This document shows, one piece after another, positions 14,055 through 59,800 of a DNA stretch of 60,124 nucleotides. Positions within the stretch are counted from its first letter, which is position 1. The number at the start of each line of letters is the position of its first letter. A program made the translations under genes and the position numbers. The stretch covers positions 1 through 60,124 of the forward strand of contig JBBTUN010000010.1 in the NCBI GenBank assembly GCA_038063735.1. The letters are read 5' to 3'. Below the pieces are notes generated by a model, which saw only the letters and a list, made by a program, of their open reading frames with translations, did not search any database and was not told where the DNA came from. This DNA is from Patescibacteria group bacterium. GTDB lineage: Bacteria > Patescibacteriota > Microgenomatia > Curtissbacterales > GWA2-41-24.

Positions 14055-14162
14055 CAAAGTCAAAGGGAAATTTTTAATTTTAAATTAGAAATTTGAAATT
14101 AATTTAAAAAATTTAGTTTTAAAACATTAAAAATTATAAATTTAAAATTGTAAATTAAACAA

Positions 14163-14417
14163 ATGACTAAAAAACTCGATACAACCTGGCACTTGTTTTT
14201 GTATGCGGCGTTTTTGGTTGGGGCAGCTGCTGTTTATTTGTCGCGCTATGACTCTTACAGACAGTTTGTGGTACTCGCCCTGTTGGTTATTTTTTATATT
14301 GTTTGGGCTATTGCGTACCACCATGTTAAGGGGGACGTGACGAAGAAATTGTTTTTAGAATATCTTCTGATTGCGCTTATCGCCTTGGGGGCAGGGTATT
14401 TAGTTTTGATGAGTTGA
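14163..14417 (+). CDS. small integral membrane protein (3 TM)
   Basis: 84 aa, hydrophobic throughout, with no recognisable family. Confidence 0.45.
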   Translation: MTKKLDTTWHLFLYAAFLVGAAAVYLSRYDSYRQFVVLALLVIFYIVWAIAYHHVKGDVTKKLFLEYLLIALIALGAGYLVLMS

Positions 14418-14489
14418 TATCCCCGCTTGACGATCCCGTATCGTTACGGTGACCTCTTGAATTCTTTCAAAGTTTTCAAGGTAAACAGG

Positions 14490-14585
14490 GTGAGCTATGA
14501 ACTATGAACTGTGAACCATTAACCGTTCTTGAAATCAGGGTAAACCACGAACTTTTCACTTTTCACTTATCACTTATCACTTTTT
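14490..14585. repeat. composite heptamer arrays (ATGAACT family, then TCACTTW x4)
   Basis: 14490-14527 reads gagctATGAACTATGAACTGTGAACCATTAACCG. 14553-14585 reads ttttcac ttttcac ttatcac ttatcac. This is the left copy of the repeat that flanks hicBA. Confidence 0.85.
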
Positions 14586-14590
14586 AATTC

Positions 14591-14614
14591 TCACGGATTG
14601 ATGACGCAGTAATT
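14591..14614 (-). pseudogene. remnant of a pilin 3' end (last 7 codons, NYCVINP*)
   Basis: The reverse complement reads aat tac tgc gtc atc aat ccg tga, which gives the same peptide as the end of the pilin gene at 15326-15349. An in-frame TAA lies immediately upstream. Confidence 0.55.
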
Positions 14615-14699
14615 TTAGCTTCGAATTTTTCTTAACTTGCACCTTCTAGCCTCCACGGGCTGCCCTTGTGCCTATTGGTGCCTAGATTAAAGAAGGAAT

Positions 14700-14918
14700 T
14701 TACTTACGGAATAAATCAGAAGGGAGTTGAGATTGTCTGATAATACTTCTCAACGTACCAATAGGTATTTCTGTTGAGTGAAATGCTACAGTCGTATGGG
14801 CTCCCGTTTTTGGATTGAAGTATTGTTTGTGACTGCTTTTGCTAACATTTACCACAAACCCATTTTGTAAAAGAATTGACTCTATCGCACGAGGTTTTAG
14901 GGGTACCAGTTTTGGCAT
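14700..14918 (-). CDS. hicA: HicA-family mRNA interferase toxin
   Basis: 72 aa. 'LKPRAIESILLQNGFVVNVSKSSHKQYFNPKTGAHTTVAFHSTEIPIGTLRSIIRQSQL' fits the HicA pattern (GF...SHxxF...TVxxH...GTLxxI). Confidence 0.8.
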   Translation of the reverse strand: MPKLVPLKPRAIESILLQNGFVVNVSKSSHKQYFNPKTGAHTTVAFHSTEIPIGTLRSIIRQSQLPSDLFRK

Positions 14919-14921
14919 TTG

Positions 14922-15179
14922 TCAGTTGCTAAACCTGATAGGTTGGGAAACGCTGATCTCGGTAACGCCCATATAATAGTCATCAGAATCTGGCTGTGGC
15001 ACCTCGGTTTTTGTTTTTACGAGGCCTTCAACGTGGCAAGTAATAGCGTTCTTCACGTTTTTTTTCGCTTCTTCTAATGTTTTTCCAAAGTCTGAAATAC
15101 CTAATGTCGGTACATCGGCGATGTAGTTGGATCCTCCCTTACGGATGACTACATGGTAGCGTAAGACTGTAGTTTTCAT
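14922..15179 (-). CDS. hicB: HicB-family antitoxin (short form, UPF0150 fold)
   Basis: 'YHVVIRKGGSNYIADVPTLGISDFGKTLEEAKKNVKNAI' matches the HicB N-terminal domain. It sits 3 nt upstream of hicA. The start is taken at the ATG at 15179 (MKTTVLRY); the ORF track extends to 15206. Confidence 0.7.
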   Translation of the reverse strand: MKTTVLRYHVVIRKGGSNYIADVPTLGISDFGKTLEEAKKNVKNAITCHVEGLVKTKTEVPQPDSDDYYMGVTEISVSQPIRFSN

Positions 15180-15248
15180 ACGTGGATAGTATACCATAAG
15201 GAGCATTTTATGATTTACGCCAGATCTGCTTTTTTGGCCTGGTAAAAA

Positions 15249-15320
15249 GAACTATGAACCGTGAACTATGAACCGTGAACTTTTCACTTATCACTTATCA
15301 CTTTTCACTTATCACTTTTT
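15249..15320. repeat. composite heptamer arrays (GAACTAT/GAACCGT, then TCACTTW x5)
   Basis: This is the right copy of the repeat flanking hicBA. It directly abuts the pilin stop codon at 15326. Confidence 0.85.
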
Positions 15321-15325
15321 AAATC

Positions 15326-15967
15326 TCACGGGTTGATGACGCAGTAGTTTCTATTACCGTTCCAAGCGTAGCTTGCGCCACACGGTGGGTTTGATGTTGG
15401 AACATTTTTATTATCTTGGTCTTTTGTGTTCTCTAGTGTGGCAGATATAACATAGGAATTATTTGGGCTTGAACTATCGTAATAGTAGTCTTGGGTTGTG
15501 GAACCAGAAAATGCAGGGTCTTTTGGCAATGGACTCATATATGTGACGGCTGGGGGATCTGGCGTTCCTGTTGCGTCACAAACAAAAACGGTTCCCCAGC
15601 TTTTTGCTGTTATGTCCCCGGTAACATTGCATTTAATTCTTCCAGCTTGCCCTGTGGTTTCGGTACTTGGGTATTTGCCGTTTTGTTGAAAGTATATTTC
15701 TAAAGCTTGCTGGACTGCTTTAAGATCGGATTTCCTTTTATTATCCCTGCCCTTCATCTGCGCGTTTGTGTAGGAAACGGTGGCAACGGCCATTAAAATG
15801 GCGATTATGGAGATGACCACCAACAATTCAATCAGGGTAAACCCTGTTGAATTGCGGTTAATGGTTAATGGTTGATGGTTAATGGCTCTTTTTCTAAATC
15901 TATGAACTATGAACTGTGAACTATGAACTATCTCGGGCAAGGACATACTTTTATGATAGCAAGTCAA
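15326..15967 (-). CDS. type IV pilin-like protein (prepilin-type N-terminus)
   Basis: 'GFTLIELLVVISIIAILMAVATVSY' is a class III signal/pilin helix. The C-terminal Cys pair ends in 'NYCVINP'. The leader of about 40 aa is encoded by heptamer arrays. Confidence 0.8.
   Translation of the reverse strand: MTCYHKSMSLPEIVHSSQFIVHRFRKRAINHQPLTINRNSTGFTLIELLVVISIIAILMAVATVSYTNAQMKGRDNKRKSDLKAVQQALEIYFQQNGKYPSTETTGQAGRIKCNVTGDITAKSWGTVFVCDATGTPDPPAVTYMSPLPKDPAFSGSTTQDYYYDSSSPNNSYVISATLENTKDQDNKNVPTSNPPCGASYAWNGNRNYCVINP
15856..15930. repeat. heptamer arrays inside the pilin 5' region (TTAATGG family and ATGAACT family)
   Basis: 15856-15885 reads ggttaatggttaatggttgatggttaatgg. 15902-15930 reads atgaactatgaactgtgaactatgaacta. 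Confidence 0.9.
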
Positions 15968-22650: not shown

Positions 22651-22679
22651 TTGACAAAGAGAATTGCGGGGAATATATA
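22651..22679 (+). promoter_or_regulatory. sigma70-like promoter (TTGACA, 17 nt spacer, TATATA)
   Basis: TTGACA at 22651-22656 and TATATA at 22674-22679. The 5' UTR of about 80 nt contains ATTTTAA heptamers (22699-22740). Confidence 0.5.
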
Positions 22680-22757
22680 GATACAAGAAAGATGCAAGAA
22701 TTTTAAATTTTAAATTTTAAATTTATAATTTCGAATAATTAAAACAAACATAATAAA

Positions 22758-29925: not shown

Positions 29926-30039
29926 TAGTAGATAGTTGACAGTAGACGGTTGACAGAAGGAAAAAACTGTTAACCATGAACCGTGAACCGTGAACCGTGA
30001 ACCGTGAACTATTAATTATTAACTATTAACTATTAACTA
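29926..30039. repeat. archetypal composite heptamer hairpin element
   Basis: The structure is (AGTAGAT AGTTGAC AGTAGAC GGTTGAC), then aaggaaaaaactgttaac, then (CATGAAC CGTGAAC x4), then (TATTAAT TATTAAC x3). It is preceded by the hairpin aaaggcc-gaa-ggccttt (29909-29927). Confidence 0.9.
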
Positions 30040-33800: not shown

Positions 33801-34133
33801 GTAAATTCTGTTGTGTTTATTGTCAAGGGAAACATAAATGTGGCAACTTCGGTGCAAACTATTCGCGCTGTTTTAATTGCAGGCGGATCGTTTACAGACG
33901 GAACTAATGGTGGAGAAATATCGACGGGTATGGGTACTTCCGGCAAGCTTTTGATATGGGGTGCTCTTTATGTTGATGGGCAAATGAATTTGGTAAGGCA
34001 TTGGGGTGGAGGAGACATTGGTTTGAATGCAACTACACCTTCACTACAGGCTGCCAGCTATTTTGCCAACATTCCTTTACTTAACTCGATTCTTTCAACA
34101 TCTCCGGTTGGTTGGAAGGAAGTGGCGCCGTAA
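30867..34133 (+). CDS. giant secreted multidomain protein B (paralog of A)
   Basis: 1088 aa with signal peptide MRKFVFGVALFLGLFFLKSVSADA. The motifs 'QDVHCTTPN', 'YYWRVRA', 'STNENEFWLEV' and 'GFFETFRGDVG' occur in the same order as in A. The protein ends 'WKEVAP'. Confidence 0.65.
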   Translation: MRKFVFGVALFLGLFFLKSVSADAALAATISGILDNRQGSIPVTVSLYVTNESGGSAGSFSQTVAQGTSSTFFQTITSGDFPSVTWFTSCNSGATTTSGSAGAYTFTPQDVHCTTPNSTVSLTSTSCAGTTGNVGWKVNLYPAPNNTPNIANFKIFKAVAPASADTDTSPITVPLGTSPYSQNLTGLSTGAYNVKVVAYANSPDGGSSVSATGQFTCNTTVVTVPTNLVSTVTCSGSNVRVDFTWAAAAGTTIVGYYVETSTAITDPGPGGSWNGPGVTPSPPTNTYAKIESGLSGATTYWWHVKATPQTGSLLYSSSLQFTTNPLSSCYQAANARETKTCYGGNTGDINFIWDTATPTFAITSQYIQFSTDPNFVASSDWSVTVDAASYTFYSFNTYFLPATRYWRIKTQMGGQWYYSNARLFWTPSQCNTGVSMTAGGVSYCAGDTPSFRFQLLPSGQQPLAYYVGTGPNGLNVTFVAAFDNYSLDLDNGPSGHYWLRHWNFAAAYYDLGNLAPASCSAAVNTPAAPTSLGYPALNTTCDVNKKPHVGFTFKDNSTNENEFWLEVSSQPFTGPSTTNPDNVWAKKVITRTDGTTTGDTITFDWYDATTTNTAGRMEFPNANPQAPPASELVPLDYVSYYWRVRAYNSGSAISSAIMYPNGSALSTSVPTGLSFMITPPCQLRHDLKTEIVSGSWRNSSGVQTQSFVASENVSVDVLVTNVVGANVTTSPALTPLYFYYKGGASMPDCTVGTSGGTAPPDGAIPAVPQLYTINALAPGDTQTITVLFNVGSSVSAFTAYAYAAPTCTFTDLGTDPSWGNNKSNGFSYTVGVNGFFETFRGDVGSGGKISVGVNSSAFATPIYQSEYAIGAVDINNTNSNVQSKNNLELDGYSKNLVPSGGVYKYFADRFLAKAKANDPLGQTCTLTHGATYNLGNKFYYCAGTANIDALSLVSGNPVFFIDGDLNINNNAGWNTPSNVNSVVFIVKGNINVATSVQTIRAVLIAGGSFTDGTNGGEISTGMGTSGKLLIWGALYVDGQMNLVRHWGGGDIGLNATTPSLQAASYFANIPLLNSILSTSPVGWKEVAP

Positions 34134-34152
34134 AAACTGCGGAGCAGTTTTG

Positions 34153-34280
34153 GTGGACAGTAGACAGTTCACAGTAGACGGTTAACAGTTAATTGTTCAC
34201 GGTTCACGGTGAGAAAGTTGACAGAAAGCGGTTCACGGTTCACAGAAAAGAGTTAACGGTCAACCGTTTACGGTTTACAG
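34153..34280 (+). repeat. long degenerate heptamer array, GTTCAC sense
   Basis: ggacagtagacagttcacagtagacggttaacagttaattgttcacggttcacggtgagaaagttgacagaaagcggttcacggttcacag... It is preceded by the hairpin aaaactgc-gga-gcagtttt (34133-34151). Confidence 0.9.
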
Positions 34281-34281
34281 A

Positions 34282-34632
34282 TTAGGGTTTAACAGAATTT
34301 TTCAAAGCGTTTATTCTTTTTGCCAAATTATCTACTCGTGGGTAAATTTCTTCGAATTCATTAGGTGTAATGTATTTAAGCTCTAAACAGATCTTTAAAA
34401 GTGGTACTAATTCATAACACGAGCCACGAGATATGTCTAAAAAATGACGAAAATCCTTTTTACTTCTTGAAGAACCTTCTGCAATGTTTAAAGAGATGGA
34501 AACAACAGCTCTTCTAATCTGGCTGGTAAGACCGAAAAGCTCTTCTCTGGGAAACTTTTTGCTAAATTTGTAAATATCTAAAGCTAGTTTTAAGGAGTCT
34601 TGGTAAACATTTAAATTTTCAAAACTCAGCAT
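34282..34632 (-). CDS. four-helix-bundle protein (23S rRNA intervening-sequence protein / Avd-like family)
   Basis: 'FENLNVYQDSLKLALDIYKFSKKFPREELFGLTSQIRRAVVSISLNIAEGSSRSKKDFRHFLDISRGSCYEL' is the family signature. Confidence 0.8.
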   Translation of the reverse strand: MLSFENLNVYQDSLKLALDIYKFSKKFPREELFGLTSQIRRAVVSISLNIAEGSSRSKKDFRHFLDISRGSCYELVPLLKICLELKYITPNEFEEIYPRVDNLAKRINALKNSVKP

Positions 34633-34643
34633 TTGTTTTATTC

Positions 34644-34762
34644 TACTATGAACAGTGAACCATTTACTGCCTACCGTGAACTGTCCGCTGTGAACTTCTG
34701 ACCTATTTTATCTTACTACGAACTATCAACTATGAACCATGAACTGTTAACTGTGAACTTTG
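34644..34762 (+). repeat. long degenerate heptamer array, GTGAAC sense (inverted relative to 34153-34280)
   Basis: ctactatgaacagtgaaccatttactgcctaccgtgaactgtccgctgtgaacttctgacc...ctacgaactatcaactatgaaccatgaactgttaactgtgaac. Confidence 0.9.
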
Positions 34763-34806
34763 ATCCACTTAATACCCGTTTAGGTTAACAAATTTTAAAG
34801 CGCTAC

Positions 34807-35935: not shown

Positions 35936-36709
35936 TTTGTTCTACTTTGCATCTAATTGAGTAGAGGTAACGGAAAATTTCTAAATTTTAATTTCTAAAT
36001 TTTAATTTCTCTTAAATTGTGTTGGGGTTGACCTAAAAAATACAAAAACAAAAAAATTGATGTTACATTTTTGCATTTTTTAACCTATTCGAGCGCCGCT
36101 TGGCGCGAAATTTTTAGTAGCAGTGTATCTACCGGCTTGCCAGTCTACCCTAAATAGTTGATTCGGTTGATACAACAGGTTAATCGGAGATAGAGAATTA
36201 AAGTATTTTTTTAACGTCGCCAGCGCTGTTTTAGTGGCCAATTTCTTGCCGGTTGGTTAGTATTGTTGGCATAAAAGACCGGCGGCTGACGACACTTTTG
36301 AAGCTAAATTGTAATTTCAGTGCCTTTTTTGGTTTTTGTCCCCAGCTACGAATATGGTCCTCGATTTATCCAGGGAATTGTGTTTTGTTGTTTTTCGTGG
36401 CAAAGAGAGCATGTTGACGTTGGGAGAACTTTTTGGATTGTTAACGTAGCTGGAGCTATTGAGCAAAATTGTTTGTTGAGGCTAGAAAAATTGCTACGGG
36501 TAGAATTATCGCAAAAGTAAAAGATGTTGGAAGTGTCTTAGTTTTTTGTATCATTAGGTATCTATGTATATGATATGGCGCTTTTTATATATCAGATATA
36601 TGTCAACTAGCTTCAATATTGAGGCTGAATTGGGCTATTTAGAGTTGAATGAGTTAGAATATTAATGTAACGAAGAACAATTTTATACCTAAAAATTTGG
36701 AGGCGATGA

Positions 36710-37510: not shown

Positions 37511-37826
37511 AAAGTAAAATTTTTGACAAATTTTTCAAAATTTAAAAATAAGGGCTCCTAGTATATTGTTATTAACGCTTTTTTAAAGCTTATAGATAAT
37601 TTTAAATTTTAAATTTTTAATTTTAAATTTTTAACGATCTGGCTTTAAAAATGATGCATTTGGCTAGGTTAAATAACTTACTCAAAATTGTATTTTTTGC
37701 TAAAAAGTTTCTCTAAAAAATATTGACTGATAGTAAAATTAGTGTATTTTTGTCGTTGATGGTTTTTGACCTTTGATGCTAGACTGAAGTTGTGGCTTAG
37801 GGCCCAGCTTTAACTGCCATATTCTT

Positions 37827-53239: not shown

Positions 53240-54697
53240 TTATTGCGGGGATTTGATGCAGTAGTTAAAGGCGCTGTTGTTGGGGATGCCGAGATCCAAA
53301 TATGGCGATGCAGGGTTTGTTACCGGGTCGAAATCGTTCGCTATACATTTTGCGTTGGCATTTCCGTATAATTCAGGGTCGTTGGCGTTTTCGAGTTTTG
53401 TCCACAGAACAAATACTTTTTGGTTTGTAGAAGTCCTGTAACAATAGACATTTGTTGCAAAGTTGTCGCAAGCACCTGTCGTTATTGGTGGATATGTGCA
53501 AGGTAGTGGATCTCCGGTGTTTGTTGCTAGCGGGTCAGTGCATGTGCTTGGCGGCGTGATGACGTCTGCGTATGTAATATCTAATTTTGGAGCATTGCCG
53601 TAAATGGGTCTTGCCGGGTCGCCTGGGTCTGTAACAGAACCGTCGTAAGAAACTCCTATTCTACCAGCACAAGACCCAAGGGGTGTTCCGTTATCAAGCC
53701 AGAATAAAAGTACGTCTCTTGGTGTCGGGCCTGCCCAGCCAGAGAGGCTATTGAGATCACTGATTGAAGACGTAATGTCGAAGGAAACTGTGCCGGGTGG
53801 GTTCCAGACAACGATATCCGGGGGAATTGTCTCGGTTGTATGAGCTTTGTTCATTTCGGTTGCCCACCCGGATCCGTCTGCGGGCGAGGCCGGTGTTAAC
53901 GTTTTTTCTGCACGGAATTTTGTTTTTACAGGTGTGTTTGCGTCGTAAAATGAATCTGGTTGGGGCATACTGTAAGGCGGGACTGCGTTTCTCATTGAAA
54001 AAGTTATTGTAGCTGAGGAGATAGTTTTTCCGGCAGGAATATTGACATTTCTGAACATCATGAAGCTATTTCTTGTGTTAAGGCAATTCGTTTCAAATGG
54101 TTTTCCGACAGGTACATCGCTGACTGCGGTGTCAAAAAATCCGGTGCTGGGTCCGGAACTGATGTATTTTCCGTCGTCTGCTGAGGCTGTTACCGAATAA
54201 GAGACATTATTTGTTGCAGCGACCTGACCATTTGCAGCTGTTTGTTGATTGTACGGATAGTTCATGATTGTTTTTACAATGTTTGCGAGTTGGGAAATTA
54301 CGCTGGTTTGCAAAGGGTCCTTTGGTAATTTATCAAGATAGCCGGCGAGGTTTGGAATCCACGACTCACTATAAGGATATGAAACATAATCCAGTGATGG
54401 GTTGGCGACTAAATCTGTAGGTGGATAGTGGTGATTGTCGGTAAAATATGCTGTTAGGGCACTAGCGACTGCCGAGAGGTCACCCTTTCTCCTGGCGTCC
54501 TTACCTTTTTCGCGTGCGTTGTTGGTGGAATATAAAATTGCGCTTGCAAGAACTGCCATTATTCCAACAACGACCAGGATTTCGATGAGAGTGAAAGCGG
54601 GCTTGGTTCGTGGTTCGTGGTTGGTGGTTCGTGGTCTGTTAAATTTTTTTCTGAGACTGTGAACTATGAACCATAAACTACTAACTATCTTGGGCAT
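53240..54697 (-). CDS. large type IV pilin-like protein (485 aa)
   Basis: 'AFTLIEILVVVGIMAVLASAILYSTNNAREKGKDARRKGDL'. The large C-terminal domain ends 'NYCIKSPQ'. The leader is encoded by heptamer arrays. Confidence 0.75.
   Translation of the reverse strand: MPKIVSSLWFIVHSLRKKFNRPRTTNHEPRTKPAFTLIEILVVVGIMAVLASAILYSTNNAREKGKDARRKGDLSAVASALTAYFTDNHHYPPTDLVANPSLDYVSYPYSESWIPNLAGYLDKLPKDPLQTSVISQLANIVKTIMNYPYNQQTAANGQVAATNNVSYSVTASADDGKYISSGPSTGFFDTAVSDVPVGKPFETNCLNTRNSFMMFRNVNIPAGKTISSATITFSMRNAVPPYSMPQPDSFYDANTPVKTKFRAEKTLTPASPADGSGWATEMNKAHTTETIPPDIVVWNPPGTVSFDITSSISDLNSLSGWAGPTPRDVLLFWLDNGTPLGSCAGRIGVSYDGSVTDPGDPARPIYGNAPKLDITYADVITPPSTCTDPLATNTGDPLPCTYPPITTGACDNFATNVYCYRTSTNQKVFVLWTKLENANDPELYGNANAKCIANDFDPVTNPASPYLDLGIPNNSAFNYCIKSPQ
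54604..54690. repeat. bipartite heptamer arrays inside the pilin leader
   Basis: tggttcgtggttcgtggttggtggttcgtgg (54604-54634), then the A/T-rich spacer, then ctgtgaactatgaaccataaactactaactatc (54657-54690). Confidence 0.9.
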
Positions 54698-54738: not shown

Positions 54739-56742
54739 CTATCTGGGGGAACGGATACAATAGTTGAGATAATGTGAGCTGCCGCCAGGTGGTGGTACGA
54801 TTGTTGAGTCATTGTCGTTACAGACGGCGCTGTCTTTAGGGCTATTATAAATATCCGGATCGCCAGTGTTTTCTAGTTGTATCCAAAGAACAAAATTTTT
54901 TCGGTTTGACGAGACTCGATAGCAGATTATGAAACTTTTATCGTTGCAAGCGGTACCTGTGCCTGAACCCCCGGGAAGATCCGGCGGAATTATGGGTGGT
55001 TCGGGATTGACTATTACAGAGCATGTCGCGTTTTGAGCACCACTTGTTACAGTCACGGTGAATGGGGAGCCTACGGAAGTGTTATATGATGTGGAAAACG
55101 GAGTGCCGCTTCCGGTGGTGTTGGATGAATTAGGTGCGGACCATGAATAGGTTCCGGTTCCTCCGGACGCTGCAAAGGAAGCGTTTGCGTTTGGTAACGT
55201 GAATGTTTGTGAGGCCGGACTGCAGACAAGTGGCGTTGCGGAGACATTTACCGACAAAGTATCTGAACCGGTTCCCCCGGGGCCGGTGCAAGTTAGATCG
55301 TACACCGTAGTGGCTGTTAGGTTTGTTGTATCGAATCCGGGAGGGTCTGCCATAGAAATTGCGCTGCTTGTAGTAGGACCGCCTGTCAGGGAACACGATG
55401 CGTCTGTGGAGTTTGCAACTGACCAGCTAAGGCGTGCGTTTGTGCCGCTGGTGATGTTGATAGAATTTCCTTGTGGTGTGCCGCCACTTTCGGGTCTGCC
55501 TTTTAGGTCTGGAATTGGTGCTGGTGTTGACCAGTTAATGGTTATGATGGGGGCTGTTCCAAGGCCGACTGCCGCACCGTCGTTGGCAACCGGCACCCTG
55601 CCGCCGCAATTAGGGTAAGCGCCTGGATTAGTTGTTCCGTCGTCTTCCCAATATATGTTTATATGCAGTGAAGAGTTGGTCCATCCCGATTGGTTTACTA
55701 AATCCTGGATTATTGTTTTGAGATCGGGGCTTTTGAGGTCGTTGGGGTTTACCGGAGTTGGATACCAGACAGGTATAGGTGTTGAGGAGTTTGCCCCCCA
55801 TTTGATTACACCTGCATCAGCTGTTTTTGGACGGCTTCCCCAATCGTTACCATCTACTATTTGCTGCGCATTTGTACTTAATTCAGCTCGAAACCTGCTT
55901 TTTATAAAACCTGGGGCTACGGCGTTAGAAGAATTGTCACCCACTCCACTATCGTTTCTTGGAGTAAAGGCAATTGTGGCACTATCGACAGTGCTGTCTT
56001 TTGGGATAGGGCCATTTAGGGTAAATCGCATGTAGGAATCTCGAGTTTGGGCACATTCAAATGGATGCCCCATCGGATTGTCGGTAACTGTGTTTTGAAA
56101 CTCATTGTTCTCCCTTATTCGTTTTGCATCGTCTTCGGAGGCTACGATAGTACCTGTTACTGACCCGGCAGCGGCGACACGGCCAGTAACATTTTTAGAT
56201 TGAGCAAGGTTATTAGCTGTTGTATTAAGTGAATTGAAAGGTTTTTTAATGATCATGGCAACCTGTTGAATTAAACTTGCTGTGGGGTCTTTGGGAATTT
56301 TTTGTAGATAAGGTGCTAGATCCGGGATCCAGTTTTCGTTGTAAGGATAGGATGAATAATCCAAGTTGAGGTTGGTTGTGTCAGTGGGTGGGTAGTGTCC
56401 GAAGTCGGCATAATAGGCAACCAGAGCGGTGGCGATTGCTTGCAAATCACCTTTTCTCCTGGCGTCCTTACCTTTTTCGCGCGCGTTGTTGGTGGAGTAT
56501 AAAATTGCGCTTGCAAGAACTGCCATTATTCCAACAACGACCAGGATTTCGATGAGAGTGAAACCACGTTTGGTTCGTGGTCGGTGGTTCGTCCTTCCTT
56601 TGTCAGGATAAATGGTTGGTAGTATATTAGATTTTTTTCTGAACCTATTAACTATGAACCCTTCATGAATCAGGGTAAACCATGAACTATTAACTATTTT
56701 ATGCACTATCTTCAGGTTAATTGGTTTTGGGGTCAAAATCAA
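54739..56742 (-). CDS. very large type IV pilin-like protein (667 aa)
   Basis: 'GFTLIEILVVVGIMAVLASAILYSTNNAREKGKDARRKGDL' is nearly identical to the 53240 paralog at the DNA level. The C-terminus is 'NYCIRSPR'. The TTG start is uncertain. Confidence 0.7.
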   Translation of the reverse strand: MILTPKPINLKIVHKIVNSSWFTLIHEGFIVNRFRKKSNILPTIYPDKGRTNHRPRTKRGFTLIEILVVVGIMAVLASAILYSTNNAREKGKDARRKGDLQAIATALVAYYADFGHYPPTDTTNLNLDYSSYPYNENWIPDLAPYLQKIPKDPTASLIQQVAMIIKKPFNSLNTTANNLAQSKNVTGRVAAAGSVTGTIVASEDDAKRIRENNEFQNTVTDNPMGHPFECAQTRDSYMRFTLNGPIPKDSTVDSATIAFTPRNDSGVGDNSSNAVAPGFIKSRFRAELSTNAQQIVDGNDWGSRPKTADAGVIKWGANSSTPIPVWYPTPVNPNDLKSPDLKTIIQDLVNQSGWTNSSLHINIYWEDDGTTNPGAYPNCGGRVPVANDGAAVGLGTAPIITINWSTPAPIPDLKGRPESGGTPQGNSINITSGTNARLSWSVANSTDASCSLTGGPTTSSAISMADPPGFDTTNLTATTVYDLTCTGPGGTGSDTLSVNVSATPLVCSPASQTFTLPNANASFAASGGTGTYSWSAPNSSNTTGSGTPFSTSYNTSVGSPFTVTVTSGAQNATCSVIVNPEPPIIPPDLPGGSGTGTACNDKSFIICYRVSSNRKNFVLWIQLENTGDPDIYNSPKDSAVCNDNDSTIVPPPGGSSHYLNYCIRSPR
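56570..56697. repeat. bipartite heptamer arrays plus a degenerate second 'FTLI' codon string in the pilin leader
   Basis: ttggttcgtggtcggtggttcgt (56570-56592). 56641-56697 reads gaacctattaactatgaacccttcatgaatcagggtaaaccatgaactattaactat. Confidence 0.85.
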
Positions 56743-56752
56743 GGCTGCGGAG

Positions 56753-56852
56753 AAATTTTTAATTTTTAATTTAAAATTTTTATTAAAATCATAATTTTAA
56801 AAAATTTAAACAATTAAAATTGATTTAAAATTTAGAACTTAAAATTTAAAAT
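56753..56852. repeat. AT-only heptamer-like array (ATTTTAA/AATTTAA family)
   Basis: aaatttttaatttttaatttaaaatttttattaaaatcataattttaaaaaatttaaacaattaaaattgatttaaaatttagaacttaaaatttaaaatt. Confidence 0.8.
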
Positions 56853-56857
56853 TGGGC

Positions 56858-57046: not shown

Positions 57047-57106
57047 GTTGATTAGTTAGATAGTTTGGTAGTTCGATAGATCGATAGTTGGTTAGTTCGT
57101 TAGAAC
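57047..57106. repeat. degenerate heptamer array (TAGTTNG family)
   Basis: gttgattagttagatagtttggtagttcgatagatcgatagttggttagttcgttagaac, lying between the four-helix-bundle gene and rpmG. Confidence 0.75.
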
Positions 57107-57126: not shown

Positions 57127-57498
57127 CTAATCTTGGAGTGATTGTTCAAGCCTGTAAAGCATTTTGGATATTTCTGTTGCAAGATTGTATGCATGATTAA
57201 ATTCTGAATTATCAATGTAAGTTAGTTGTTCAACAATGTGGAGACAAGTTAGAGACTCTCTTAAAGAACCTAGGGAATCATGAAGAAATTTTCTAAAATC
57301 TTTTTTTGTTCTTCGACCTGATCCCTCTGCAATATTTAAGGCGATTGATACGGCTGATCTTCTGATTTGGGATTGAAGGCCGAATATTTCACTTTTGGGA
57401 AACTTCGTGCTTATTTTGTAAATATAAAGTGAGTATTCTACCGCTTTTTGCCAGACTAGGAGCTTTTCGAATCTAAAACTTGCTATCTGCCTATCCAT
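57127..57498 (-). CDS. four-helix-bundle protein (23S rRNA IVS protein / Avd-like family), second copy
   Basis: 'FEKLLVWQKAVEYSLYIYKISTKFPKSEIFGLQSQIRRSAVSIALNIAEGSGRRTKKDFRKFLHDSLGSLRE'. Confidence 0.8.
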   Translation of the reverse strand: MDRQIASFRFEKLLVWQKAVEYSLYIYKISTKFPKSEIFGLQSQIRRSAVSIALNIAEGSGRRTKKDFRKFLHDSLGSLRESLTCLHIVEQLTYIDNSEFNHAYNLATEISKMLYRLEQSLQD

Positions 57499-57514
57499 CT
57501 AACGAACTACCCAT

Positions 57515-58771
57515 CTAATTACTATATTTGTATGTCCCTTTTATTATTTGCCAGGACCCTCCGGGGCCTGTAGTAAATTGGGCTGATGCAAGACCTGAAT
57601 CGTAAGTGAGGCTTGCGCTGTTTTTGATAAGCATCGATTTGGAGACCAGCGCTGTTACCTGGGCCGAGTTTGAAAGCTCTGAACCGCCGTCGAGGGCGTA
57701 GAATATGGCATTGACACCGCTATTTTGGATTTTTACAGCATCGCTTGCCGTTGATGTGGTTGCCACAAGTATGTAACCCTTAGGACTAGAGCTAGTAGGT
57801 GTAAAACCGCCGCTATTTGCTGTGACGATTTTCCCTCCAACTATGAGCACAGAGCCGCTGGATCCAAATGAGTTGTTAAGTTTTAGGGAGGCAGAGTTTT
57901 GGATGGTAACATCGCCTGTTACATATATGGGGCCGTTCATTATGGCGGTTGCAGTGTTGGAGAGTGTCAGGTTGCCAATATACTTTTGCGGCCCAAGGTT
58001 TGGTGAGCCGCTCGATATGGAGCACGTACCGGTGCAGTTAGTAATCCCTCCTGCTGTTGCAGCATCTTGCCAATATTGGTAATCAAGTGTTGGCATTTGA
58101 GATGCTGTTTGGTTTTGGTGTTTTGTGCCTGTGACGGTGGGATCGGGAGTTGTGATTGTCCCGACCGCGTAGGCATTCCCGACAATCCTGGATGACCCGG
58201 TACCGCTTATGCTGCCAGCCCCGGTTTTGTTTGAATAGACCGTGCCGGTGATAGTTGCTGAATTTTCCATATCGACACCACCGGTGCCCACTTGAACCGC
58301 GTAATTAAATTCTATGATAGTGTTGTCTATGCCTACATCAAGTTTAATTACCCTTTTGTTTTTCGGTGAGGTAGCGTTTGGGACGTAACCCGTTGCTGTT
58401 ACAGTTTTAAGGTTTGATGATTTGTTTGCGACGGTTACTGTGAACGTGCCGGTTGTGCCAAGCGCTGTGTTTGTTTCTCCCGAATAAGCGCCGGCAGTTT
58501 GGTTGAGCTGCCAAAGAGCTCTTTCTATGCCAGCCTCCGAAAGGCTATTTGCTTCTTCTCCCGTAACAGACCCGGAACCAAATCTTAGTAAATCTGCAGT
58601 TCTTCCAAACAGGCTTGCAGTTAGTATTAGAACTACGGCTATAAAAATTAGGCCAAAGACGAGAATTTGGCCGGGATAGTTGGTGGTTGATAGTTGATGG
58701 TTGATAGTCTTTACGGCTTTGCACGTTTTCTTTCCATGAACTACTAACCACGAACTATTAACTAATTTCAT
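57515..58771 (-). CDS. pilus-associated protein with an N-terminal TM helix and a beta-helix-like body (PilX-like position)
   Basis: 'GQILVFGLIFIAVVLILTASLFG', then Gly/Thr/Asn/Ser-rich repeats such as 'GPIYVTGDVTIQNSASLKLNN..GSVLIVGGKIVTAN'. Overlaps the upstream gene by 4 nt. Confidence 0.55.
   Translation of the reverse strand: MKLVNSSWLVVHGKKTCKAVKTINHQLSTTNYPGQILVFGLIFIAVVLILTASLFGRTADLLRFGSGSVTGEEANSLSEAGIERALWQLNQTAGAYSGETNTALGTTGTFTVTVANKSSNLKTVTATGYVPNATSPKNKRVIKLDVGIDNTIIEFNYAVQVGTGGVDMENSATITGTVYSNKTGAGSISGTGSSRIVGNAYAVGTITTPDPTVTGTKHQNQTASQMPTLDYQYWQDAATAGGITNCTGTCSISSGSPNLGPQKYIGNLTLSNTATAIMNGPIYVTGDVTIQNSASLKLNNSFGSSGSVLIVGGKIVTANSGGFTPTSSSPKGYILVATTSTASDAVKIQNSGVNAIFYALDGGSELSNSAQVTALVSKSMLIKNSASLTYDSGLASAQFTTGPGGSWQIIKGTYKYSN
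58676..58768. repeat. bipartite heptamer arrays in the 5' end of the 57515 gene
   Basis: atagttggtggttgatagttgatggttgatagtc (58676-58709) and ccatgaactactaaccacgaactattaactaatt (58735-58768). Confidence 0.9.
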
Positions 58772-59349
58772 TTGTTTCTTAAAAGAGCTGTTGCTTCTCT
58801 TTCTATGTCTTGGGTTTTGCTGCCAGTTGTTGCTGAAAGCTTAATTTTGGCTGTGACTTCTGTAGCCTGGGCCGGGGTAGCATTGTTGTATGTAAAGGTA
58901 AGGTCGGATACCCTGGTTGCTACTATTTTGTTTAAACTAGATCTTGTGCTTGTGGCTGTGGGATAAACAATTTTTTTCAGTATCGTATTGTCGGTTGCGT
59001 CTCTTTTGTACTGGATATAGTCAAAGTTGGTGCCGCCATCAAAGGGTTCGTTTGTGGCATTAAGCGGCCAGATTTGCAGAATGATTAGATTTGCTCCTGT
59101 CGTATCCGGTCCGCAAGGTGTACAACTGGCTACAATCGATTGGCTCTCCCGAATTTGATTGATCATTTCGTCCAGAACAACTTTATTGTCTTCTGTAATT
59201 GTTATAAGTGCGCTTTGATCCTGGAAAAATTTGAAATGATTGATAAAGATATAGCCTAAAGTGAGCATGACAAATCCTAAGAGAGCTGCCGCTATTAACA
59301 GCTCTACAAGGGTTAAGCCTTTAATGCGTTTTGGAGTGTTAAATACCAT
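58768..59349 (-). CDS. minor pilin-like protein (prepilin-type N-terminus)
   Basis: 'KGLTLVELLIAAALLGFVMLTLGYIF'. Confidence 0.65.
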   Translation of the reverse strand: MVFNTPKRIKGLTLVELLIAAALLGFVMLTLGYIFINHFKFFQDQSALITITEDNKVVLDEMINQIRESQSIVASCTPCGPDTTGANLIILQIWPLNATNEPFDGGTNFDYIQYKRDATDNTILKKIVYPTATSTRSSLNKIVATRVSDLTFTYNNATPAQATEVTAKIKLSATTGSKTQDIEREATALLRNK

Positions 59350-59800
59350 TTTCGTAAATTAGCGTGTCCATGTGTACTTGCCTTGTTGTACTATTTACCA
59401 CCCAGGTAACGTTGATTGAGACCTGTTTGATTTGCGTTGAGCTTTGATAGTTACTAACGGTGAGCGTTGCAGCGCCTTGCGGTAACTTAGACAAGTTAGG
59501 ATCTGCAAATGGGCCGGAGGCAGGTAGTGAGGCAAAGGCAGTGTTTCTTAAATCCTCGACCTTTTTGGATGCAATTTTTGATGCAGTAGATTGCAGGTTT
59601 GATTGGCGGGTTAGGGTTAAGGTGCCTGACGCCGTTAAGAGAATTGCGGTAAGAATAATTAAGATAAATACGCTGAGGAGAACCTCGATGAGGGAGAAAC
59701 CAAAGCGTCTTTGGCGCTTGTTAACAGTTAACGGTTCACGGTTCACGGTTTTTTCTTTACTGTGAACTGTCAACTTCAAACTGTCGACTGACTTGGGCAT
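59339..59800 (-). CDS. minor pilin-like protein (prepilin-type N-terminus)
   Basis: 'FGFSLIEVLLSVFILIILTAILL'. The leader contains heptamer arrays. An in-frame GTG inside the array would give a conventional 15-aa leader. Confidence 0.65.
   Translation of the reverse strand: MPKSVDSLKLTVHSKEKTVNREPLTVNKRQRRFGFSLIEVLLSVFILIILTAILLTASGTLTLTRQSNLQSTASKIASKKVEDLRNTAFASLPASGPFADPNLSKLPQGAATLTVSNYQSSTQIKQVSINVTWVVNSTTRQVHMDTLIYENGI
59720..59790. repeat. inverted heptamer arrays in the minor-pilin leader
   Basis: gttaacagttaacggttcacggttcacggt (59720-59749), then ttttttctttac, then ctgtgaactgtcaacttcaaactgtcgac (59760-59790). Confidence 0.9.

Follow-up and report, generated by a model that had tools for sequence, protein, structure and literature searches.

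A four-helix-bundle gene between opposed heptamer arrays

We analysed a 60,124-nt contig (JBBTUN010000010.1, here called the window) from groundwater of the Hainich aquifer (0.1 µm fraction), which belongs to a Microgenomates/Curtissbacteria-like member of the candidate phyla radiation and has 42% G+C. Our subject is a small gene of the S23p family, that is, of the proteins named for intervening sequences (IVS) of 23S rRNA, which are four-helix bundles resembling Avd. The gene, here called copy 1, lies in the spacer between a large surface-protein gene of 1088 amino acids (aa) and mreB, antisense to both neighbours, and is enclosed by two opposed arrays of tandem 7-nt units (heptamers), the arms. 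An Rfam scan of the window returned tRNAs only and no rRNA. The locus holds the following features, where L-numbers denote compared loci:

34132-34151, plus strand: small hairpin AAAACTGC-gga-GCAGTTTT, which overlaps the 1088-aa gene's stop codon (read directly; kept beside the cassette in L091, L172 and L170)
34152-34242: 91-nt segment (13 x 7) of the left arm, missing from a near-identical strain (alignment with L170 and L171)
34153-34293: left arm (3' arm in gene sense), GTTnAnn heptamers in two blocks, 34153-34208 and 34229-34281
34282-34632, minus strand: copy 1, four-helix-bundle gene (S23p / 23S-IVS protein, Avd-like), 116 aa, PF05635 and TIGR02436
34640-34765: right arm (5' arm in gene sense), nnTnAAC heptamers in two blocks, 34640-34697 and 34717-34765
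34766-34806, plus strand: conserved mreB upstream motif TGATCCACTTAATACC...TTTAGGTTAAC...AAAGCGCTACTTGA (comparison of L091, L095, L096, L097 and L101)

In a profile search copy 1 scored 124.7 bits against PF05635 (cut-off 33.8) and 116.5 bits against TIGR02436 (cut-off 24), which together with a reading of the flanks bears out the initial annotation, where a four-helix-bundle gene with opposed heptamer arrays on each side had been called here. We know of no function for PF05635/TIGR02436, although structures have been solved. The nearest of these to copy 1 is XCC0516 of Xanthomonas (PDB 2gsc, E = 2e-19), whose entry holds five chains (homopentamer). Residues Q38, R41, S45, N49, E52, G53, S71 and E74 (pattern Q..R...S...N..EG, S..E) were 97-100% conserved in 95 family members and are present in both window copies; the invariant glutamates (two), arginine, asparagine and glutamine point to a conserved biochemical site. 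The ratio of nonsynonymous to synonymous substitution rates (dN/dS) of copy 1 against its orthologues was 0.07-0.15 (~0.08 as a summary value), so the protein is functional and maintained by strong purifying selection, including in the flipped copy described below.

The left arm runs into the copy 1 stop codon (34282-34284), which is to say that in coding sense it starts directly behind that codon. The two arms are inverted over up to 43 nt at 77% complementarity, with several registers possible, and by themselves co-fold at -90 to -94 kcal/mol. When the 636-nt region is folded, the flanks pair around the gene (z = -5.5 for the minus strand and -3.2 for the plus strand); the long imperfect stem that had been proposed to enclose the gene is thus predicted for both. 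The stem is long because two arrays of the same family stand in opposite orientation. A specifically co-evolved arm-arm helix was rejected, the arms being no more alike than unrelated arrays. As for the edges of the insertion, the hairpin at 34132-34151 marks its left boundary and is probably the 1088-aa gene's own terminator; on the right, the mreB upstream motif (TGATCYAYTTAATAYC..TTTAGGTY..AAAGCGC.YCTTGA), common to relatives with 80-86% identical MreB, forms the exact edge of the spacer occupant in every relative compared, and is probably the promoter or leader of mreB. A promoter and terminator scan of the copy 1 locus gave weak consensus promoter matches only and one weak terminator-like match, with no T run following the arms.

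A second family gene, copy 2, sits between a pilus gene and rpmG (L33; 56858-57046, minus strand):

57047-57106: degenerate (A)ACTAnC array between the gene and rpmG, 3' arm, 60 nt
57127-57498, minus strand: copy 2, four-helix-bundle gene, 123 aa, 49% identical to copy 1 (PF05635 129.3 bits, TIGR02436 124.6 bits)
57499-57515: short 5' arm, in coding sense gatgggtagttcgttag, 17 nt just upstream of the start codon

The flanks of this copy had been called weak, with a degenerate array on one side; that array is present, and the 17-nt 5' arm is an inverted copy of its start (13/14 matching, flank inverted-repeat z-score 8.5), so that the arrangement is confirmed for copy 2 as well.

Turnover at the mreB site

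With MreB as anchor, 75 related loci were fetched and their neighbours mapped, and we compared the spacer from the stop codon of the surface-protein gene to the conserved TGATCY...TTTAGGTY motif upstream of mreB. In L095 and L097 (MreB 83-86% identical) this spacer measured 23-25 nt and held no array, and in L096 it held a gene-less hairpin of eleven GCTAGAT/GTTAGAT units plus their inverse. L101/L117 carried a different paralogue (43-47% identical) with GAAGGTT-type arms, and L102, L103 and L108 an unrelated gene of ~200 aa. L091 (MreB 84%) had an orthologue of copy 1 (76% identical) on the same strand as its neighbours, with ~4 units per arm. BLAST comparison of L091 with the window showed collinear outer flanks and a reversed interior, the breakpoints falling inside the arrays. 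A third orthologue, L172, is also in sense, and with two orthologues so oriented the antisense orientation in the window is most simply taken as derived, through a flip between the two inverted arms that the element itself carries.

In one strain, whose protein is 99% identical and which differs by three substitutions in ~730 nt, the left arm was shorter by exactly 91 nt (13 heptamers); this difference and the short arms of the L091 orthologue show that the long arms of copy 1 are not conserved. Eight independent contigs from several samples had copy 1 in one orientation. Gene and arms are thus shown to evolve as a DNA-level unit that is gained, lost, replaced and inverted, the arms changing by whole heptamers. 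The synteny comparison supports the mobile cassette suggested by the initial annotation: the gene is not ancestral at its position, relatives with 80-86% identical MreB being empty, hairpin-only or occupied by another paralogue, and polymorphism was found both as the inversion relative to L091 and as the 13-heptamer indel between strains. Two cassettes stand around mreB in L093 / L113 (JGI Ga0315284_10000025), one with GTTCA-type arms 3.4 kb upstream and one with CAATTGA-type arms directly downstream.

Inverted arms across the gene family

The family is large (17,855 clusters at 50% identity, from a single-sequence search of 1.84 billion representatives). We surveyed 79 loci with homologues 41-65% identical, from species-representative genomes labelled as Patescibacteria, Omnitrophota, Planctomycetota, Nitrospirota, Bacteroidota, Chloroflexota, Acidobacteriota and others. 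A design recurred in these loci, with a tandem heptamer array upstream of the gene and its reverse complement downstream. The period of 7 was constant across phyla and the heptamer sequence variable, differing by lineage (GTTCAYR, GCAGTnG, GGTCTAG, ACAGAGY, CAGATAR, GTGAGTA, GAAACGT, GTCGACA, AGGATTn and more). As a control, each gene in the surveyed loci was given a score for the inverted similarity of its two 150-nt flanks, with a threshold of 30. Other copies of the family do have flanking arrays: the threshold was reached by 55% of 73 four-helix-bundle genes vs 2.4% of 627 other genes (Mann-Whitney p = 1e-19), and by 4.2% of 191 small control genes. Seven of the 15 control exceptions were further four-helix-bundle paralogues, one was a GxxExxY gene and one a gene resembling IS200 or a REP-associated tyrosine transposase (RAYT; REP, repetitive extragenic palindrome). 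Strictly periodic arrays numbered 2.47 per kb within 200 nt of family genes vs 0.21 per kb elsewhere (11.6x).

The GxxExxY-family (PD-(D/E)XK-like) small gene (L081, 1245-1625) lies between inverted arrays whose units, of CGCAGAGG type, recur every ~9-11 nt (flank score 68), and may represent a second small-gene family of the same design with another period. The IS200/RAYT-like gene (L017, 7573-8250) has an inverted palindromic repeat, ggggacggtcc / ggaccgtccc, in a classical REP-RAYT layout, and shares its contig with a four-helix-bundle cassette.

Arm geometry was regular in 95 distinct genes: the median arm length was ~4.4 units (typically 4-5 heptamers), the 5' arm ended ~17 nt ahead of the start codon, and the 3' arm started 0-7 nt past the stop codon or overlapped it. 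Among cassettes between co-directional neighbours, 59 of 64 (92%) were in sense, and cassettes were found inside the otherwise conserved atp, nuo, dnaN and pilus operons. The polarity of the arms was modest (G>C in 27 of 37 5' arms, C>G in 28 of 40 3' arms), and Shine-Dalgarno-like motifs were rare in 5' arms (3 of 41). The idea that heptamers supply stop codons in all frames was dropped, several heptamer families (e.g. ACAGAGC) containing none. Phage genomes yielded no family copies, and defence-system and phage libraries gave no match beyond a weak likeness to Avd. Plasmids gamma and alpha of Nostoc sp. PCC 7120 (L173, L174) encode an identical four-helix-bundle protein, WP_010994075.1. Each copy is placed downstream of an ISL3-type transposase; a CTGCCYT array follows its stop codon, and upstream there is no inverted partner.

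A search of plasmids led to a family copy in Azospirillum lipoferum 4B (AZO_p2, L175) with no annotated gene over it. Rfam puts this copy within a 23S rRNA gene, its distance from the 5' end being ~1,140 nt; on its flanks, five heptamers (CAGAGGA/CGGATGA) and their five inverted counterparts give a stem of ~30 bp that is near-perfect. The resemblance of the window locus to an IVS, pointed out in the initial annotation, is therefore more than a likeness, since this IVS has the same open reading frame (ORF) family with 5 + 5 inverted heptamers.

Heptamer arrays and protein type

Period-7 self-similarity marked 249 windows of the contig, vs at most 31 at any other period, and there were 27 array calls vs 0-3 in shuffles. 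About 25 arrays of the GTTnAnn family occur in the 60-kb window, nearly all in spacers and starting a few to tens of bases past a stop codon. The arm heptamers of copy 1 are thus not special to it, the same heptamer family being dispersed over the window, where it also forms five close gene-less inverted pairs (array calls, folding):

15857-15928: GGTTAAT x4 then TATGAAC x4
29928-30037: directly after the stop codon of a 1145-aa gene
54592-54685: GGTTCGT x4 then TGAACTA-type, between two pilin-like genes
58679-58762: between pilus genes
59720-59788: GGTTCAC x2 ... GTGAAC

Folded as hairpins, these pairs reach -20 to -36 kcal/mol. Four of the five fold much better as plus-strand RNA (e.g. -36.0 vs -16.3 kcal/mol), which numerous G.U pairs account for; they lie at 15850-15935, 54590-54690, 58672-58766 and 59715-59792, and three of them have minus-strand flanking genes. 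Across loci this strand asymmetry showed no trend, among only six hairpins with defined neighbours.

Heptamer sequence followed the protein. Among 57 cassettes with scorable arrays, heptamer-profile similarity was 0.74 at a protein identity of at least 60% vs ~0.48 below 50% (Mantel r = 0.36, p <= 0.0005), and paralogues on the same contig bear different heptamers, as do the GTTCA-type and CAATTGA-type cassettes of L093. By these comparisons it is the type of protein, and not the host, that the heptamer sequence goes with. Gene-less arrays, moreover, were closer to the heptamer of the cassette in their own locus than to the heptamers found in other loci (Wilcoxon p = 3e-7). Such covariation would fit specific recognition of the heptamer, and also a simple co-inheritance of gene and arms.

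Other repeats in the window

Two composite repeats of ~100 nt (14486-14599 and 15247-15331) flank the toxin-antitoxin genes hicA/hicB on the minus strand (14700-14918 and 14922-15206, within 14486-15331). Each repeat joins a TGAAC-type heptamer array to an ACTTATC/ACTTTTC array that comes after it, and the two bound another small cassette, here in direct and not inverted orientation. A second heptamer class, near-pure A+T (AATTTTA and relatives), occurs at 14059-14163, 22678-22746, 35976-36010, 37580-37643 and 56754-56853, mostly upstream of genes, and no four-helix-bundle gene accompanies it within the window. Near the 5' ends of adjacent pilin-like genes a 146-nt segment is duplicated at 93% identity (54480-54625 and 56447-56592). 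The longest ORFs of several pilin-like genes begin inside heptamer arrays (53240-54697, 57515-58771 and 59339-59800); the pilin N-terminal methylation motif comes ~30 residues in, so the true starts are probably downstream and the arrays intergenic.

Weighing the explanations

We consider it probable that the locus belongs, as one copy among many, to a widespread, compact type of cassette, in which an S23p gene is tightly bracketed by two inverted arrays of a lineage-specific heptamer, and that this is the same element as the ORF-bearing IVS of 23S rRNA, here in an ordinary spacer. The cassette would have entered the spacer between the surface-protein gene and mreB as a unit; recombination between its own inverted arms would have flipped the interior in the window lineage, and the arms may have grown by slipped-strand or unequal exchange. 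In a read-through sense transcript the arms would form double-stranded RNA cleavable by RNase III, such that insertion inside transcription units and operons might be tolerable and do little harm. The pentameric protein may recognise heptamer arrays, both its own and gene-less ones, and hairpins of this heptamer family that lack a gene might serve as landing sites, through recombination with arms, or be relics of ORF loss. That the pentamer reads the heptamers we infer more weakly, arguing from the ~4-5 units per arm, from a period that stays constant while the sequence varies, and from covariation. In its widest form, which we put forward tentatively and would not bet on, the proposal is that S23p pentamers are sequence-specific readers of tandem heptamers with one protomer per 7-nt unit, that the excess of heptamers between bacterial genes is the footprint of the family, with each paralogue owning its heptamer family, and that the rRNA IVS is a side branch.

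Several observations weigh against the cassette interpretation. In about 40-45% of the family, arms could not be detected. Copy 1 runs antisense to the genes beside it, unlike the great majority of family cassettes, and so placed it would need its own promoter, yet only weak consensus matches occur at the locus. Neither a recombinase nor a transposase was found near copy 1, and no target-site duplication was discernible there, the empty sites in L095 and L097 being too diverged in the 23-nt spacer to define one. The similarity score between the arms of copy 1 was 37, vs up to 45-50 for each arm with unrelated arrays of the window. Mismatches in 47 stems showed no sense-strand excess of G.U (70 vs 82) and transversions dominated (231), so that by this measure RNA-level pairing is not visibly under selection outside rRNA; unequal and unstable arm lengths also argue against strong RNA-level constraint there. 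Covariation of heptamer and protein, lastly, is expected from linkage alone and is no proof of binding.

An account modelled on REP/RAYT systems overlaps with the cassette interpretation, laying more weight on a partnership of protein and repeat and less on a selfish cassette: the pentamer would be the trans-acting factor of dispersed arrays, each paralogue recognising and perhaps maintaining or spreading its own heptamer family, with the arms as nearest targets for autoregulation and the arrays as the main product. This we regard as possible, at rather less than even chances. It would account for protein type predicting heptamer type, for gene-less arrays of the same family in the same locus (~25 in the window), and for the array, of a family of 186, at the start codon of the crystallised XCC0516; the period of 7 kept across phyla while the sequence changes, arms of ~4-5 units that compare with a homopentamer, strong purifying selection on the protein, and the analogous layout of the RAYT-like gene in L017 are also in keeping with it. 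Linkage alone can give the covariation, however, the two invariant glutamates are unexpected in a plain nucleic-acid binder, and polymerase slippage alone has also been proposed for heptamer repeats (PMC4692102, citing Mrazek 2007). Alternatively the element could be host-domesticated and without mobility, the arrays being ordinary 3'-end hairpins (terminators, stabilisers or processing sites) and the gene a conserved RNA chaperone between two of them. The start of window arrays shortly past stop codons, the folding energies of the hairpin pairs and the presence of cassettes in sense inside operons suit this idea, which we nonetheless find unlikely: close relatives have empty, hairpin-only and other-paralogue states at the same site, insertions occur in otherwise universal operons and in 23S rRNA, in several hairpins it is the strand antisense to the genes alongside that folds much better, and the arms lack a following T run, with a single weak terminator-like match.

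The remaining explanations have much less to recommend them. A phase-variable invertible switch (invertron) controlling mreB or the surface-protein gene would explain the inverted arms and the opposite orientation in a related species; yet the eight independent contigs, from several samples, agree in orientation, no recombinase lies nearby, and the 92% of family members in sense suggest a preferred state and not a switch, so that we think it very unlikely. Slightly more improbable still is coincidence, whereby in an array-rich genome the gene merely happens to lie between two opposed arrays. The density of arrays (~25 in 60 kb) and the fact that the copy 1 arms are no more alike than unrelated arrays would allow for it, but it is contradicted by the survey: phyla that are not related show the layout with heptamers that are not related either, its frequency is 20-fold that at neighbouring genes, and the arms keep fixed distances to start and stop codons. 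We give hardly any credence to the gene being a remnant or accessory gene (Avd) of a diversity-generating retroelement (DGR), and rejected this reading. It was raised by weak matches to bAvd PF22296 (22.8 bits), NF033474 (20 bits) and the PHROG 'Avd protein of DGR'; these fall below the curated cut-offs (40 and 80 bits), NF033474 reaching 20-31 bits vs a cut-off of 80 for the window copies. No reverse transcriptase adjoins either copy, the neighbours of copy 1 being the surface-protein gene and mreB, and the flanking repeats are 7-nt arrays and not a template/variable repeat pair.

Relation to known systems

An excess of intergenic heptamer repeats has been known before (1990, 2007, 2015), and ORF-bearing IVS of 23S rRNA have been described from 1993 onward (Leptospira, Coxiella). 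Heptamers in the Coxiella IVS were reported in 2016 (PMC4990558). Our results suggest that these are one phenomenon, a cassette of a gene plus inverted arrays that lies mostly outside rRNA. In the literature we found no description of family-wide inverted heptamer bracketing or of a link to heptamer repeats, although coverage was incomplete and a prior description is possible; what appears new here is the IVS-type cassette outside rRNA that evolves as a DNA-level unit, and the general link between family and heptamer. An orphan family thereby gains a testable nucleic-acid partner, its own heptamer, and heptamer repeats gain a candidate protein; the cassette interpretation also explains the presence of such genes inside otherwise conserved operons.

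The 23S rRNA IVS share with the window cassettes the protein family, the ORF in the loop of a stem of terminal inverted repeats, and arms of heptamers whose number varies between strains. The Coxiella IVS is reported to carry an S23p ORF and terminal inverted repeats that RNase III cuts, the stem so cut containing GACAGAT heptamers in strain-variable copy number (PMC4990558). The ORF of an rRNA IVS is in sense to the host transcript, as are most family cassettes, and copy 1 differs in being antisense. Unlike rRNA IVS, the window copies lie between protein-coding genes and not in helix 45 of 23S rRNA, and their arms are long, imperfect and unequal, compared with the near-perfect rRNA stem of Azospirillum; cutting by RNase III is established for rRNA IVS, whereas for the window cassettes it is proposed by analogy.

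Avd has a homologous fold, forms a pentameric barrel and binds nucleic acid together with its reverse transcriptase. The window genes differ from it in having no neighbouring reverse transcriptase and no template/variable repeats, and in scoring below the equivalog cut-off. MITEs (miniature transposable elements with inverted repeats) and foldback elements resemble the cassette in their inverted terminal arms, syntenic presence or absence and gene-less derivatives; unlike MITEs, the cassette shows no discernible target-site duplication, and has array arms of variable length and a conserved cargo gene that is not a transposase. With REP/REPIN sequences and their RAYT the cassette shares a layout in which a repeat flanks a single small gene in inverted orientation; further copies of the repeat, with no gene, are scattered through spacers behind genes, and the kind of repeat goes with the kind of gene. 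It differs in that its protein is a four-helix bundle without Y1-transposase (IS200-like) motifs, for which we know of no mobilisation activity, and in that its repeats are tandem arrays of 7-mers and not one palindrome.

GGGAATC arrays of Xanthomonas are intergenic, mostly of ~4 units and often in convergent inverted pairs, with position conserved and length variable between relatives (PMC4692102). A 4-unit GGGAATC array stands at the XCC0516 start codon; its family numbers 186 arrays, of which 70 are arranged in inverted pairs (PMC4692102 supplementary file 2). The authors of that study did not connect the repeats with XCC0516. These arrays and the GGGGAYT short tandemly repeated repetitive (STRR) sequences of Nostoc/Calothrix are like the window arrays in being intergenic, of ~4 units and in inverted pairs, and differ in having been treated as G-quadruplex-forming, whereas the window heptamers are not G-rich. 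If the heptamer-reader model is true, cyanobacterial STRR, Xanthomonas GGGAATC and the window arrays would belong to a partnership of repeat and protein comparable to that of REP and RAYT.

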